From: a virus
Lineage: Duplodnaviria > Heunggongvirae > Uroviricota > Caudoviricetes
Virus record (IMG/VR): IMGVR_UViG_3300029738_000110
Reading direction: 5' to 3' (one strand)
DNA: 5,371 bases
The stretch's first letter is position 1. Every line of letters starts with the position of its first letter. The position numbers and the translations under genes are program-made. This document shows, in pieces, positions 1-5,361 of this stretch. The notes beneath the pieces are model-generated. The model saw only the letters and a list, made by a program, of their open reading frames with translations. It had not been told where the DNA came from and made no database searches.

Positions 1-935
1 GGGTTGACGCCGGAAGAATCAGAGAACAGATACCGTTTTTACTGTAAAACCGTGGCCAATATTACTTGACCACTACAAAGGATGCCAACGATAAATGGAA
101 TGCCATGTGGGCTGTCAAAATTGAGCAGACCAAAGACGGCAAACATTATGTCGCGGGTATTGGCCTCAGCATGGAGGACACGGAAGAAGGCAAGCTGAGC
201 CAGTTTCTGGTTGCCGCTAACCGTATCGCGTTTATTGACCCGGCAAACGGGAATGAAACGCCGATGTTTGTGGCGCAGGGCAACCAGATATTCATGAACG
301 ACGTGTTCCTGAAGCGCCTGACGGCCCCCACCATTACCAGTGGTGGAAATCCACCGGCATTTTCCCTGACATCAGACGGAAAGCTGACCGCTAAAAATGC
401 GGATATCAGTGGCAGAGTGAATGCGAACGCCGGGACGCTCAACAATGTCACGGTAAATGAAAACTGTACGATTAAGGGCATGCTGGAGGCGACTCAGGTC
501 AGAGGTGACTTCGTTAAAGCTGTATCCAAATCATTCCCGAAACAGGCTGGTACGTGGGGTAACACGGAAACACCAAACGGGACGGTTACAGTCACCATCA
601 GCGATGATCATAACTTTGACCGTCAAATCATTATTCCGCCCATTATCTTTAACGGAATAGCGTATAGCGATCCGGGAAGTGGTAATAACCCGGGAGGTAC
701 AAGATACACGGGTTATGGTTTTGAAGTTCGCAAAAACGGTGTATTAATCGCATCCAGAGAAACTAAAGGGGCCATTCCCGGTAGCTACAGTGCGGTTATT
801 GATATGCCGAGTGGCAGGGGAAGCGTCACTCTGGAGTTTAAGGTTTTCCATAAAGGCAATCAGTGGGCAGGTAATATCACCGACTGTACGGTGATTGTGA
901 CCAAAAAAGCCGCTTCCGGCATCAGTATTCGTTGA
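1..935 (+). CDS. J: 3' portion of host-specificity protein J (central tail fibre / tail tip), partial at the window edge. The frame is discontinuous: frame 1 is open from 1 to 66 and stops at TGA 67-69, while the long frame-3 ORF (66-935) has an in-frame TAA at 45-47. Possible frameshifted pseudogene.
   Basis: The 289-aa translation ([91 protein letters not shown]...GISIR) matches, from memory, the C-terminal region of lambda J-family proteins. There is no ATG or Shine-Dalgarno at the ORF start (TTG at 66 only), consistent with a gene that begins upstream. It sits directly upstream of lom and stf, as in lambda. Confidence 0.8.
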
Positions 936-1004: not shown

Positions 1005-1076
1005 ATGCGTAAACTTTATGCCGCCATTTTGTCCGCAGCCATTTGTCTGGCCGTATCCGGTGCGCCTGCATGGGCA
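1005..1076 (+). other. Sec signal peptide of Lom (predicted signal peptidase I cleavage after AWA)
   Basis: A basic N-terminus (MRK), a hydrophobic core (LYAAILSAAICLAV) and an A-W-A motif precede the mature N-terminus SEHQ. Confidence 0.7.
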
Positions 1077-1604
1077 TCTGAACATCAGTCCACGCTGAGC
1101 GCGGGGTATCTTCATGCCCGGACCAACGTTCCCGGCAGTGATGATCTGAACGGGATTAACGTGAAATACCGTTATGAGTTTACGGATACGCTGGGGCTGG
1201 TGACGTCATTCAGCTATGCAGGAGACAAGAATCGCCAGCTGACCCGTTACAGCGATACCAGCTGGCATGAAGATTCCGTGCGTAACCGCTGGTTCAGCGT
1301 GATGGCGGGGCCGTCTGTGCGCGTGAATGAATGGTTCAGCGCGTATGCGATGGCGGGTATGGCTTACAGCCGTGTTTCGACTTTTTCCGGGGATTACCTT
1401 CGCGTAACTGACAACAAGGGGAAAACGCACGATGTGCTGACCGGAAGTGATGACGGTCGCCACAGCAACACGTCTCTGGCGTGGGGGGCTGGCGTGCAGT
1501 TTAACCCGACCGAATCCGTGGCCATTGATATTGCTTATGAAGGCTCCGGTAGTGGTGACTGGCGCACTGACGGTTTCATCGTGGGTGTCGGTTATAAATT
1601 CTGA
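1005..1604 (+). CDS. lom: Lom, an Ail/Lom/PagC/OmpX-family outer-membrane beta-barrel protein (lambdoid moron)
   Basis: The 199-aa ORF has an N-terminal signal peptide (MRKLYAAILSAAICLAVSGAPAWA, then SEHQ) with an AXA cleavage site. It has alternating amphipathic beta-strand character and ends in the OMP-typical aromatic ...GVGYKF. Its position between J and stf is the same as lambda lom. Confidence 0.9.
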   Translation: MRKLYAAILSAAICLAVSGAPAWASEHQSTLSAGYLHARTNVPGSDDLNGINVKYRYEFTDTLGLVTSFSYAGDKNRQLTRYSDTSWHEDSVRNRWFSVMAGPSVRVNEWFSAYAMAGMAYSRVSTFSGDYLRVTDNKGKTHDVLTGSDDGRHSNTSLAWGAGVQFNPTESVAIDIAYEGSGSGDWRTDGFIVGVGYKF

Positions 1605-1668: not shown

Positions 1669-4065
1669 ATGGCAGTAAAGATTTCAGGTGTACTGAAAGA
1701 CGGCACAGGAAAACCGGTACAGAACTGCTCAATCCAGCTGAAAGCAAAACGTAACAGCACCACGGTGGTAGTGAACACGCTGGCCTCAGAAAATCCGGAT
1801 GAAGCCGGGCGTTACAGTATGGATGTTGAGTATGGCCAGTACAGCGTTATCCTGCTGGTTGAAGGTTTTTCGCCTTCACATGCCGGGACCATCACCGTGT
1901 ATGAAGATTCTAAGCCGGGGACGCTGAATGATTTTCTCGGTGCCATGACGGAAGATGATGTCATGCCGGAGGCATTGCGTCGTTTTGAGGAAATGGTGGA
2001 AGAAGCGGCACGCAACGCTGAAGCCGCCTCTCAGAGCGCAGCGGCGGCAAAGAAATCCGAAACTGCAGCGGCATCATCGAAGAACGCGGCGAAAACCTCA
2101 GAAACGAATGCAGCTAATAGTGCACAGGCGGCAGCGACCTCAAAGACTGCATCGGCAAACTCCGCGACAGCAGCCAAAAAATCAGAAACCAACGCGAAAA
2201 ATAGCGAGACAGCCGCAAAGACGAGCGAAACCAACGCAAAGTCCAGCCAGACGGCAGCGAAAACCAGCGAAACGAATGCCAAAGCCAGTGAAACTGCGGC
2301 AAAAAACAGCCAGGTTGCAGCAGCCCAAAGCGAGAGCGCGGCAGCCGGTTCTGCGACTTCAGCAGCTGGATCAGCAACTGCTGCGGCTAACAGCCAGAAA
2401 GCTGCGAAGACGAGTGAAACTAACGCAAAGTCCAGCCAGACGGCAGCGAAGACCAGCGAAACGAATGCCAAAGCCAGCGAAACTGCGGCGAAAAACAGTC
2501 AGGATGCAGCAGCCCAAAGCGAGAGTGCTGCAGCTGGTTCTGCAAGCGCGGCGGCTGCTTCTGCCACTGCATCAGCCAACAGTCAAAAAGCAGCAAAAAC
2601 CAGTGAAACCAATGCAAAGACAAGCGAGACTGCAGCGGCGAACTCGGCGAAAGCATCGGCAGCAAGCCAGACAGCAGCTAAAGCAAGTGAAGACGCAGCC
2701 AGAGAGTATGCAAGTCAGGCAGCAGAGCCGTATAAATATGTCTTACAGCCACTGCCTGATGTGTGGATACCGTTTAACGATTCACTGGATATGATTACGG
2801 GCTTTTCGCCGTCATATAAAAAAATTGTTATTGGTGATGATGAAATAACGATGCCTGGCGACAAGGTTGTTAAGTTTAAACGCGCATCAACTGCCACATA
2901 TATCAATAAATCAGGCGTATTTAGTGTTGCTAAAATTGATGAGCCACGATTTGAAAAAGAAGGTTTATTGATTGAAGGACAGCGCACTAACTATTTTGTT
3001 AAATCCAATACTCCCGCTGAATGGACGAGTACCAGCAATATCGATAAAACTAATAATGGTGTTGATGAATTTGGTTTTTCATATGCCAAAATGCGAACAA
3101 AAGATAATATGACAGGACAATCATCTGCACTTAGTCTGCATACATGCAGTGCATCCCGGGGGATTGATGTTAGTGGCGATAATAAGTATTGCACTGTTTC
3201 ATGCAGGGTTAAAGCTCCTGATGGTCTTCGTTGTCGTTTGCGTTTTGAAAAATACGATGGGTCGGTTTATACATTTTTAGGAGATGCTTATTTAACTTTC
3301 GGAACTCTGATAATAGAAAAAACTGGCGGAGCAGCCAATAGAATAGCAGCTACTGCAACTAAAGATCCGGTTACAGGGTGGATTTTCTATGAGGCAACTA
3401 TAGAAGCTGTTGAAGGTGAAACCTTAATTGGCGCAATGATTCAGTATGCGCCGAAAAAAGGTGGTATAACTGAAGCGGGAGATTATATTTACCTTGCAAC
3501 ACCACAATTTGAAAACGGCGGATGTGCTTCATCTTTTGTTATTACGACAACTGCACCCGCAACCCGCTCCAGTGATATGGTGACGATCCCAACTGAAAAT
3601 AATATCTATAATAGACCGCTTACGTGTCTTGTCGAGGTTAATAGAAATTGGGGCGATATTCCTCCTAATGTAGCACCGCGTATTTTTGATTTTTCTGGTG
3701 TGCCACCTATTGAGTCAATTACATACGCTTTTAACACAACTGAGAAATATTACGGTCAGCTTTATATGCAAACTTATAAAGCGTCGACAAGTACTTACGT
3801 TTCTAGTGTGTTTGCTGGTCGAGCTGATGTTCGAAAATTCATTGGTGGTTTTAATATTTATTCTGATGGTACTAAACGAGTAGTTTCTAACGGTGAGGCT
3901 ACTAAAACTATGAAAACGGAGTGGACGGGCGTAAAAACACGGACCTTTATTCGAATTGGAGGTCAAGCCACATCGGGAACTCGTCATCTATTCGGCCATT
4001 TGAGAAATCTTCGTCTCTGGCATAAAGAATTAACTGATGCGCAAATGGGGGAGAGTATTAAATGA
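1669..4065 (+). CDS. stf: Side tail fibre protein (Stf family). It has a lambda-like N-terminal attachment domain, an Ala/Ser/Thr-rich repetitive shaft, and a divergent AT-rich distal (receptor-binding) domain.
   Basis: The 798-aa ORF starts MAVKISGVLKDGTGKPVQNCSIQLKAKRNSTTVVVNTLASENPDEAGRYSMDVEYGQYSVIL..., which matches the N-terminus of lambda Stf as I recall it. A G-rich Shine-Dalgarno (GGGGGGAA, 1660-1667) lies just upstream of the ATG. The central part is an SETNAK/TAAKTS repeat shaft. The C-terminus ends ...FGHLRNLRLWHKELTDAQMGESIK. Confidence 0.9.
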   Translation: MAVKISGVLKDGTGKPVQNCSIQLKAKRNSTTVVVNTLASENPDEAGRYSMDVEYGQYSVILLVEGFSPSHAGTITVYEDSKPGTLNDFLGAMTEDDVMPEALRRFEEMVEEAARNAEAASQSAAAAKKSETAAASSKNAAKTSETNAANSAQAAATSKTASANSATAAKKSETNAKNSETAAKTSETNAKSSQTAAKTSETNAKASETAAKNSQVAAAQSESAAAGSATSAAGSATAAANSQKAAKTSETNAKSSQTAAKTSETNAKASETAAKNSQDAAAQSESAAAGSASAAAASATASANSQKAAKTSETNAKTSETAAANSAKASAASQTAAKASEDAAREYASQAAEPYKYVLQPLPDVWIPFNDSLDMITGFSPSYKKIVIGDDEITMPGDKVVKFKRASTATYINKSGVFSVAKIDEPRFEKEGLLIEGQRTNYFVKSNTPAEWTSTSNIDKTNNGVDEFGFSYAKMRTKDNMTGQSSALSLHTCSASRGIDVSGDNKYCTVSCRVKAPDGLRCRLRFEKYDGSVYTFLGDAYLTFGTLIIEKTGGAANRIAATATKDPVTGWIFYEATIEAVEGETLIGAMIQYAPKKGGITEAGDYIYLATPQFENGGCASSFVITTTAPATRSSDMVTIPTENNIYNRPLTCLVEVNRNWGDIPPNVAPRIFDFSGVPPIESITYAFNTTEKYYGQLYMQTYKASTSTYVSSVFAGRADVRKFIGGFNIYSDGTKRVVSNGEATKTMKTEWTGVKTRTFIRIGGQATSGTRHLFGHLRNLRLWHKELTDAQMGESIK
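2215..2592 (+). repeat. In-frame tandem direct repeat of two 189-bp units (63 aa each) in the stf shaft, followed by a partial third unit to about 2645. It contains nested 27-33 bp sub-repeats encoding (A)AKTSETNAK-like motifs.
   Basis: Copy 1 begins gcaaagacgagcgaaaccaacgcaaagtccagccagacggcagcg at 2215. Copy 2 begins gcgaagacgagtgaaactaacgcaaagtccagccagacggcagcg at 2404, exactly 189 bp later. The copies are near-identical and differ mainly at synonymous positions plus a few substitutions. Confidence 0.85.
4047..4055 (+). promoter_or_regulatory. Shine-Dalgarno for the 93-aa ORF, embedded in the 3' end of stf
   Basis: GGGGGAGAG lies 6-7 nt upstream of the ATG at 4062. The ATG overlaps the stf stop (ATGA at 4062-4065). 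Confidence 0.55.
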
Positions 4066-4343
4066 AAGATTTAACACTCAAATTTGCAGACAGGGCCGAC
4101 TTTTCGGCCTTTATGGAGAGCATTGGCTATTATGATGACGAGTCGATGCAGGATGATATTCTTATTGACGTGATAGGTAATGTGTACAAAGAAACCGGAG
4201 AACTTACTGAAGATGGCGAGCCGGTATGTGTTAAGGAGGACGGATATTTTGTAAATGTGCGCATCATTAATGATTCGCAAATATCGTCATTATTCGATGA
4301 ATACGTGGTTGCTGTTGAGCATCAACTCCGTAGCTGGATGTGA
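4062..4343 (+). CDS. Small acidic hypothetical protein (93 aa), translationally coupled to stf. Candidate tail-fibre accessory or chaperone protein, unrelated to Tfa.
   Basis: The ORF has an ATG start with an upstream Shine-Dalgarno and a 4-bp ATGA overlap with the stf stop. It is Asp/Glu-rich (MKDLTLKFADRADFSAFMESIGYYDDESMQDDILIDVIGNVYKETGELTEDGEPVCVKEDGYF...). It shares the AT-rich composition of the stf distal domain. I recognise no family. Confidence 0.6.
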   Translation: MKDLTLKFADRADFSAFMESIGYYDDESMQDDILIDVIGNVYKETGELTEDGEPVCVKEDGYFVNVRIINDSQISSLFDEYVVAVEHQLRSWM

Positions 4344-4346
4344 GGA
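4342..4346 (+). promoter_or_regulatory. Shine-Dalgarno for the 234-aa ORF
   Basis: GAGGA overlaps the stop of the 93-aa ORF and lies 6 nt upstream of the ATG at 4353. Confidence 0.5.
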
Positions 4347-4352
4347 AGAAAA

Positions 4353-5057
4353 ATGGCTACATCGACAGTAATTCCTGATGACATCAAAACGCTAAAGGGA
4401 GATGTCAGTAAGGCAAAGGAAGATATTTCCTCAATTAACGTAAAAGTATCAACGCTTCAGACTGATATGGACAGTGCAAAGCAGGATATCAGTACCAGAT
4501 ACACAAAAACAGAAGTGGATAATAAGCTGAAAAACAAAGTGGAAGTGAACGATCTGGAAAGTGGTCGTTATGGCGGAGATTTTTACCCGCTGACTGGCCG
4601 TGAAGCGTTTTATTTATGGGGATTGGGCACAACTACAGCGGCGGCAAATCTTTATCTTAATCCTGACCCTGCAATTTCGTCTGTGCTGCGGTCAACATCG
4701 TCTATCCGCTATAAACATTCAGTAGAGACGATAGATTCAGAGCACGCCGATCTCATTTTCAGGATGCGCCCTGTGTGGTACAGGTCGCAATGCGAAAATG
4801 ACAGGCGTGACTGGGGATTCTATGGATTGATTGCCGAGGAAGTTGGAGAAATTGCCCCTCAGTTTGTTCACTGGCGACCAGCCAACGAAGATGATGCACC
4901 GGAAACCATTTCCAGCAATGGCCTTGTTGCCGAAGGTGTAATGTACGAACGTCTGGTTGTTCCACTGATTCACCATATCCAGAAGCTGACTGAAAGAGTT
5001 GATGAACTTGAGTCAGAATTAAAGTTGTTATCCGTTTCCCGAAGCGATATCGGATAA
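4353..5057 (+). CDS. Tail-fibre-like protein with an N-terminal coiled coil and a C-terminal intramolecular chaperone domain (peptidase S74 / endosialidase-chaperone type), 234 aa
   Basis: The N-terminal 70 aa or so are heptad-like and charged (DIKTLKGDVSKAKEDISSINVKVSTLQTDMDSAKQDISTRYTKTEVDNKLKNKVEV). The C-terminal half carries the characteristic chaperone-domain pattern: SSIRYK (aa 116-121, nt 4698-4715; compare the S-D-x-R-x-K autocleavage motif), then VETID..ADLIFRMRPVWYR, then GFYGLIAEEVGEIAPQFV (compare GxIAQEVxxVxPExV), then GVMYERLVVPLIHHIQKLTERVDELESEL (compare the conserved Y..L..LI.AIQEL coiled-coil tail). Confidence 0.75.
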   Translation: MATSTVIPDDIKTLKGDVSKAKEDISSINVKVSTLQTDMDSAKQDISTRYTKTEVDNKLKNKVEVNDLESGRYGGDFYPLTGREAFYLWGLGTTTAAANLYLNPDPAISSVLRSTSSIRYKHSVETIDSEHADLIFRMRPVWYRSQCENDRRDWGFYGLIAEEVGEIAPQFVHWRPANEDDAPETISSNGLVAEGVMYERLVVPLIHHIQKLTERVDELESELKLLSVSRSDIG

Positions 5058-5067: not shown

Positions 5068-5361
5068 ATGGATATAACACCTTTCCTTCATGCACTTTGT
5101 GCTGTGGCTGCGCAGGTACTGGTTGGTCTTTTTACCGGAAACTGGGCTTACGGGGCGATAGCTGGTTGTACGTTCTTCATTGCGCGTGAACATACCCAGG
5201 CAGAATATCGCTGGATTGAAATGTTCGGGCATGGCAAGCGTATGAATATGCCGTGGTGGGGCGGTTTTGATCCGCGTGCGTGGGATGTGGCAAGCCTGAT
5301 GGATTTTGCTGTGCCGGTGGTGGCGTGTCTGCTGGTCTGGCTGTTGGTTAATCGTGGGTGA
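5068..5361 (+). CDS. Small predicted inner-membrane protein (97 aa, two hydrophobic helices), function unknown. Candidate prophage moron.
   Basis: It has an ATG start with a consensus Shine-Dalgarno. Hydrophobic segments lie at about aa 6-36 (FLHALCAVAAQVLVGLFTGNWAYGAIAGCTFFIA) and aa 76-95 (LMDFAVPVVACLLVWLLV). They are separated by a polar, Trp-rich loop (EYRWIEMFGHGKRMNMPWWGGFDPRAWD). Confidence 0.65.
   Translation: MDITPFLHALCAVAAQVLVGLFTGNWAYGAIAGCTFFIAREHTQAEYRWIEMFGHGKRMNMPWWGGFDPRAWDVASLMDFAVPVVACLLVWLLVNRG

Follow-up and report, generated by a model that had tools for sequence, protein, structure and literature searches.

The stretch of DNA analysed here (5,371 nucleotides (nt), hereafter the window) belongs to the IMG/VR virus record IMGVR_UViG_3300029738_000110 and represents the tail-tip end of a lambdoid Escherichia coli prophage, with all listed genes on the plus strand (Table 1). 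Our subject is its side tail fibre gene, stf, and in particular the distal module of the Stf protein (amino acids (aa) 346-798; nt 2704 is codon 346 of stf), which a first-pass annotation made from the sequence alone had described as the divergent, lectin-like end of a mosaic fibre. Our analysis indicates that this module consists of two tandem concanavalin-A-like jelly rolls, D1 and D2, and that it forms, with the small gene orf93 downstream of it and optionally a second fibre gene, a cassette that appears to be widespread and horizontally exchanged. We consider it likely that this exchanged module provides the fibre with a two-lobed, glycan-binding head carried by a lambda-type anchor and shaft.

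The complete layout of the window is found at an identity of at least 99% in 137 complete E. coli genomes, and in 165 at a coverage of at least 80%. As a whole, Stf corresponds end to end to PHROG 1419, annotated as 'tail protein' (1426.5 bits; aa 1-797 against positions 1-793 of 793). Its distal part, nt 2704-4065, is 99.8% identical at the nucleotide level to the deposited phage PhiR49_1 from host ECOR13, whose record names this gene side tail fibre; a literature search on PhiR49_1 returned nothing relevant. On the minus strand of nt 2704-4065, no open reading frame (ORF) exceeds 90 aa, and those present were taken as chance ORFs.

The anchor, the shaft and the mosaic junction of Stf

Over its first 110 aa or so, Stf follows the attachment domain of the lambda side tail fibre, as the first-pass annotation had recognized: 96 of 110 residues (87%) are identical to lambda orf-401, the N-terminus of lambda Stf, and the Pfam family PF08400 (phage_tail_N) is matched over aa 1-131 with 229.8 bits, against a gathering score of 26.6. 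In the Ala/Ser-rich repeats (aa 118-200), identity to lambda Stf goes down to 39%. The repeat-rich shaft and the position of the gene after J and lom are further likenesses to the Stf of Ur-lambda. The distal 453 aa were also correctly described as unlike the lambda gp37-type region, since their best BLASTP match to lambda orf-314, the gp37-like end, has an E of 2, i.e. no detectable similarity. Whereas the distal part of lambda Stf is gp37-like, needs Tfa and binds OmpC, the window has the module, orf93 and orf234 instead. Searches of Pfam, PHROG and NCBIfam matched no Tfa-type family among orf93, orf234 and orf97, and no Tfa was found elsewhere in the window. Judged by these comparisons, the gp37-like distal domain and Tfa, which form part of the definition of a lambda-type fibre, are both lacking.

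The G+C content of stf changes exactly at the junction, from 0.54 (aa 1-345) to 0.40 (aa 346-798), and this drop at aa 345/346 marks the mosaic junction of Stf. Values remain low as far as the middle of orf234, orf93 included, and are back at 0.53 in orf97. This suggests that the stretch from distal stf to the 5' half of orf234 was imported as a cassette. The low-G+C tract as a whole extends over nt 2704-4650 (0.40-0.43) between flanks of 0.53-0.55, and would be consistent with acquisition from lower-G+C virulent siphophages. The junction motif, PLPDVWIPFNDSL, lies on short strands that follow the end of the shaft helix; in the model, the helix occupies residues 2-10 and the strands residues 20-51 of the distal segment (segment numbering starts at aa 346). 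Within this junction, aa 361-375 are conserved across the family alignment described below, and the 5' part of the distal module is common to many other phages at 79-89% nucleotide identity.

The shaft contains a tandem repeat of its own (Table 1). Stf alleles of 735/736 aa in the databases lie 63 aa away from the 798-aa allele of the window, which is exactly one 189-nt repeat unit; shaft length thus appears to vary through gain or loss of repeat units.

Table 1. Genes and features of the window (positions in nt of the window).
Feature	Position	Strand	Basis
J, C-terminus	66-935	+	ORF list and Pfam
lom	1005-1604	+	ORF list and Pfam
stf, side tail fibre gene, 798 aa	1669-4065	+	ORF list; PHROG 1419; PhiR49_1 match
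Lambda-type N-terminal anchor domain, aa 1-131	1669-2061	+	Pfam PF08400 phage_tail_N; identity to lambda Stf
Ala/Ser-rich shaft, about aa 112-345	2002-2703	+	Repeat-rich alignment to lambda Stf shaft
189-nt tandem repeat inside the stf shaft	2203-2637	+	TRF: period 189, 2.3 copies, 83% matches
Conserved junction/adaptor, about aa 346-402	2704-2874	+	Model, conservation, nt sharing; boundary to D1 approximate
D1, predicted first concanavalin-like jelly roll, about aa 403-642, GTA (gene transfer agent) head-spike-fibre domain	2875-3594	+
Cys run C493, C508, C512, C522 inside predicted D1 beta-strands	3145-3234	+	Positions and model
D2, predicted C-terminal LamG_3-type jelly roll, aa 643-798	3595-4065	+	Pfam Laminin_G_3, profile matches
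orf93, small acidic partner gene, 4-nt overlap with stf	4062-4343	+	PHROG 1361, tblastn
orf234, minimal second fibre subunit: conserved N-terminal peptide, coiled coil, predicted Peptidase_S74 chaperone domain	4353-5057	+	Pfam PF13884
orf97, encoding a small predicted membrane protein, downstream of the fibre cassette	5068-5361	+	PHROG 1443

Predicted fold and family of the distal module

A search of 1.84 billion representative proteins returned 1,941 clusters related to the distal segment at E ≤0.001, and 45 diverse relatives (24-90% identity) were aligned with aa 346-798. The AlphaFold2 model of the segment (pLDDT 90.7, pTM 0.88) is almost all beta and places two concanavalin-A-like jelly rolls in tandem. 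The first of them, D1, matches the NCBIfam model NF048003 (GTA_spike_fiber) over nearly its entire length: positions 1-181 of the 182 in the model align with Stf aa 434-634 and score 62.6 bits, where the cut-off is 36. This family was built around Rcc01080, the head spike fibre of the Rhodobacter capsulatus GTA (RcGTA; also GhsB, PDB 6tb9). A PDB sequence search with the module likewise retrieved Rcc01080 alone, and weakly (E = 0.057). The likeness concerns D1, which corresponds to residues 45-282 of the 325 residues of Rcc01080; D2 has no match there, and the GTA protein differs in being a monomer located on capsid pentons, not a tail fibre.

In D2, the window protein matches the last 63 profile positions of Pfam Laminin_G_3 (PF13385) with 18.9 to 21 bits (E = 0.0018 to 0.00039). 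The same family is matched by 26 of 31 D2 relatives, with a best E of 9e-13, and the D2 family profile finds solved chains of LamG type (PDB 4qvs), the CBM40 of NanA, BoNT Hcn and pentraxins. Profile and model matches assign D2, at the level of the family, to the Laminin_G_3/concanavalin-like superfamily with a jelly-roll fold. The C-terminal signature of this kind noticed in the first-pass annotation is therefore borne out by the relatives, the profile and the model, and the quoted C-terminus itself (the last 39 residues, ending FIRIGGQATSGTRHLFGHLRNLRLWHKELTDAQMGESIK) was accurate. The annotation had proposed structure prediction and profile searches of aa 346-798 as a check: a concanavalin-like fold is indeed predicted and no match to the lambda gp37-like end appears, but two domains are recovered where one had been assumed. 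It had missed the second jelly roll as well as the conserved partner genes downstream.

Fold matches of the modelled module are lectin-type jelly rolls, the closest being carbohydrate or ganglioside binders. A reading of D1 or D2 as an enzyme domain akin to concanavalin-like glucanases or lyases, one that would degrade or modify glycans and so cut through O-antigen or capsule, appears to us very unlikely.

Conservation along Stf is strongly uneven. Conserved frames (aa 361-375, 406-450, 601-645 and 766-795) enclose hypervariable cores at aa 451-600 in D1 and aa 676-765 in D2. Five residues of the conserved frame strands of D1, aa 427, 436, 441, 613 and 615 (R82, E91, N96, Q268 and E270 in segment numbering), are invariant in 46 of 46 aligned sequences, down to 24% identity. 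Being invariant, they cannot encode specificity.

D1 also holds the run of four Cys that had been singled out as a potential disulfide or metal site. Its coordinates and spacing were exact (aa 493, 508, 512 and 522, nt 3145-3234; C-x14-C-x3-C-x9-C), and, as the distal 453 aa contain six Cys in all, the clustering of four of them within 30 residues is mildly non-random (P about 0.011 on shuffling). Furthermore, C512 persists in the 12 closest representatives and in relatives with identities down to about 44%, about half of which also have C522. On the other hand, C493 and C508 are present solely in the window protein and in a 92%-identical relative, and all four columns are otherwise occupied by V, I, L, A, F or Y, so that the conservation pattern is not that of a Cys4 site. 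The four residues fall within strands of the modelled sandwich (143-148, 162-170 and 176-184, segment numbering), and a reading of the sequence revealed no His or Asp partners. Virions are assembled in the reducing cytoplasm, which also counts against a disulfide or metal site. A functional site at this position is thus highly improbable. As the Cys positions are not conserved, they probably represent buried, hydrophobic sites of the core at which this allele happens to have Cys.

Distribution and partner genes of the module

In a tblastn search, the distal module was detected in 218 phage records, and coverage reached at least 80% in 206. The records include members of Drexlerviridae (the T1-like tunus, swan01 and tonn), Dhillonvirus, Queuovirinae (KurtStettler), T5-like phages (IrisVonRoten, AKFV33, SP15), rV5-like myoviruses (EdH4) and many lambdoid phages, phage 21 among them. 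The same module also occurs behind other N-terminal anchors, e.g. PF03406. In complete E. coli genomes, the allele of the window is present in 227 of 5,426 (about 4%), and some nucleotide match to the module in 1,728 (about a third); most of the latter are partial and, to judge from the phage matches, probably cover mainly the conserved 5' frame, i.e. the first 290 nt. The distal domain had been implied to be rare, with the proviso that it should not turn out to be the common form in lambdoid Stf proteins. With 218 phage records and its presence in lambdoid Stf, the module is by that standard a common form. Homology searches place it as a common and widespread ending of the side and lateral fibres of coliphages, neither rare nor undescribed.

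Among lambdoid phages, PhiR49_1 carries an allele of 99.6% identity to that of the window, and further alleles of the same family occur in PhiR46_1, PhiR63_2, ev017 and 1H12, among others. Phage 21 likewise combines a lambda-type anchor with a module of this family (CPT_21_22, 54% identity), with orf93 and the gene for the membrane protein orf97 behind it; it differs from the window in its variable cores and in having no second fibre of the orf234 type.

The gene directly downstream of the module, orf93, matches PHROG 1361 and has homologues in 183 phage records (tblastn). A homologue was found directly 3' of the module in all five loci that we read, from lambdoid, T5-like, Queuovirinae and rV5-like phages, with an overlap of 4 nt in four of them and of 1 nt in EdH4. 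The product is 39% identical to Gp23 of IrisVonRoten, encoded at the same overlapping position. It has no family annotation, and its model, of moderate confidence (pLDDT 72.5), gave no significant fold match. A homologue-profile search for diverse sequences listed only near-identical E. coli proteins and left the alignment no deeper.

The third gene, orf234, carries a match to Pfam PF13884 (Peptidase_S74) at aa 116-172 (27.3 bits against a cut-off of 22), which identifies an intramolecular chaperone domain. Since S74 domains are autoproteolytic, the mature part of the protein would be only about 115 aa. Its N-terminus, MATSTVIPDDIKTLK, has counterparts in IrisVonRoten Gp24 (MVTKTVIPTDITKLK) and in bas22_0024 of KurtStettler (MVTKTIIPTDITKLK), and the third genes of the three phages share the N-terminal peptide M-x-T-x-T-[VI]-I-P-x-D-I-x-x-L-K and are otherwise different. 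The lengths of these second fibres are 234 aa in the window, 574 aa in IrisVonRoten and 510 aa in KurtStettler. In phage 21 and in the rV5-like EdH4, no second fibre gene adjoins the module and orf93. Synteny and homology together define the module, orf93 and the optional second fibre gene as a widespread cassette that is exchanged horizontally.

The best-described relative of the whole arrangement is the T5-like phage IrisVonRoten (Bas32). Its Gp22 is 50.2% identical over 99% of the 453 distal aa of Stf, and the local alignment spans Stf aa 112-797, i.e. from the shaft onward. The gene order is the same: a fibre, a gene of 92-93 aa overlapping by 4 nt, and a second fibre with the N-terminal peptide and S74. 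There are also differences. The anchor of Gp22 is T5-type, whereas that of Stf is lambda-type; the second fibre of IrisVonRoten is T-shaped, with 574 aa and two receptor-binding domains, against 234 aa in the window; and the IrisVonRoten paper describes one galectin-like domain where our Stf model shows two jelly rolls. In that work (Humolli et al., 2025; PMC11990801), Gp24 was modelled as a T-shaped distal fibre attached to the proximal fibre Gp22, and the 'galectin-like domain' protruding at the C-terminus of Gp22 was predicted to be a possible additional receptor-binding domain. LtfA/LtfB of the T5-like phages DT57C and DT571/2 is another fibre encoded by two genes, its second protein being attached through the first; it targets O-antigen (PMC4728585). 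Both of these proteins end in S74 chaperone domains, and neither a concanavalin-like terminal module nor an orf93-like gene was described.

These comparisons raise the possibility, which we regard as doubtful, that the module and orf93 serve mainly as a structural branch point holding the true receptor-binding fibre, here orf234, and that the module itself does not recognize the host. The shared peptide at the start of otherwise different third genes would fit such a role, as would the AlphaFold-Multimer models that put Gp24 on Gp22 (PMC11990801), the existence of branched LtfA/LtfB fibres in T5-like phages (PMC4728585) and the strong conservation of the frame regions of the module. Against it, phage 21 and EdH4 retain the module and orf93 without an adjoining second fibre gene, the cores of D1 and D2 show the hypervariability to be expected where a surface faces a variable receptor, and a mature orf234 of about 115 aa would make a small receptor-binding fibre. 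Docking and glycan binding by the module are not mutually exclusive.

Several other fibres were considered and set aside. The Stf of Gifsy-1 is lambda-type, and Sf11 has tailspikes. The fibre mutations of U136B could not be mapped onto this module, and the RBPseg fibre atlas makes no mention of the BASEL phages that we checked in it (IrisVonRoten, KurtStettler, VogelGryff and KarlBarth).

Function of the fibre tip and its surroundings

Our preferred reading is that Stf ends in a glycan-binding head. The lambda-type anchor and an Ala/Ser-rich, presumably trimeric shaft would carry, on each chain, the conserved junction followed by D1 and D2, so that the fibre would terminate in three two-lobed lectin-type heads. 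The cassette (module, orf93 and, optionally, the second fibre) would replace the lambda gp37-like tip and its Tfa chaperone. The heads could bind a strain-variable surface glycan, such as O-antigen, capsule or similar, reversibly as a primary receptor, and this would raise the adsorption rate before J engages its own receptor. Specificity would reside in the hypervariable cores of D1 and D2. The role of the conserved frame would be to maintain the fold and to make contact with orf93 and, in loci that have a second fibre, with its N-terminal peptide.

Glycan binding by the head is plausible and agrees with the published suggestion for the homologue Gp22. The RcGTA head spike fibre binds capsular polysaccharide, a property known only for RcGTA within this comparison. 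According to the BASEL papers, the lateral fibres of the siphoviruses concerned target O-antigen as a facultative primary receptor. The head could alternatively bind an outer-membrane protein in place of a glycan. The Stf of Ur-lambda does bind OmpC (cited in PMC11338833), and LamG and neurexin-type domains are often protein binders; but the homologous GTA fibre binds capsule, the lateral fibres that bear the module are those of phage groups for which O-antigen is held to be the target, and the carbohydrate or ganglioside binders stand closest in fold. A protein receptor seems unlikely to us on this balance.

Several points weigh against a glycan-binding head. The Laminin_G_3 score of the window protein itself stays below the gathering cut-off of 27.6 bits, so that on its own it does not qualify as a member of this family. 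R82, E91, N96, Q268 and E270 are invariant across relatives that come from public genomes and metagenomes and whose hosts were not determined, and residues of this kind cannot encode specificity. In IrisVonRoten, it is chiefly Gp24, the T-shaped distal fibre, and not the lectin-like module to which specificity for O16 has been ascribed. Finally, the module family has no solved structure; Rcc01080 is resolved for residues 2-10 only, and its globular part is unsolved.

It is tempting to go one step further and to suggest, tentatively, that the double domain and orf93 form an undescribed universal 'socket' that ends proximal fibres, binding glycans and at the same time accepting interchangeable distal fibres via the peptide MxTxT[VI]IPxDIxxLK. 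Such an arrangement would cover lambdoid, T1-like, T5-like and Queuovirinae phages, and rV5-like phages for the module and orf93 only. If so, orf93 would be an adaptor or chaperone for fibres of a novel type, one for which no relative in fold could be detected. We place this idea among the less probable ones.

For host-range prediction, it is useful to know that the lectin-type head has two lobes, that its frame is fixed while its cores are hypervariable, and that it is exchanged along with orf93. The same holds for the construction of chimeric lambda-based delivery particles; work on chimeric lambda STF uses P2, K1F, K5 and KL106 tips. The first-pass observation was correct and is an ordinary one, as the module is of a known kind and its allele was already in public records. 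It opens no new question, since public annotation and the 2025 paper (PMC11990801) already cover the fold, the family and the cassette.

Two observations concern the surroundings of the cassette. In PhiR49_1, downstream of the equivalent of the window, a 135-nt ORF (9741-9875) is annotated as a fragment of the tail fibre assembly protein Tfa, and an omptin gene lies further on. The fragment looks to be what remains of an earlier stf-tfa pair of lambda type that the imported cassette pushed aside. Within the window, the 97-aa product of orf97 shares 94 of 97 residues with CPT_21_24 of phage 21, annotated as a membrane protein with two transmembrane domains. This near-identity contrasts with the identity of only about 54% between the fibre modules of the window and phage 21, and orf97 may be a moron or an exclusion-type gene.

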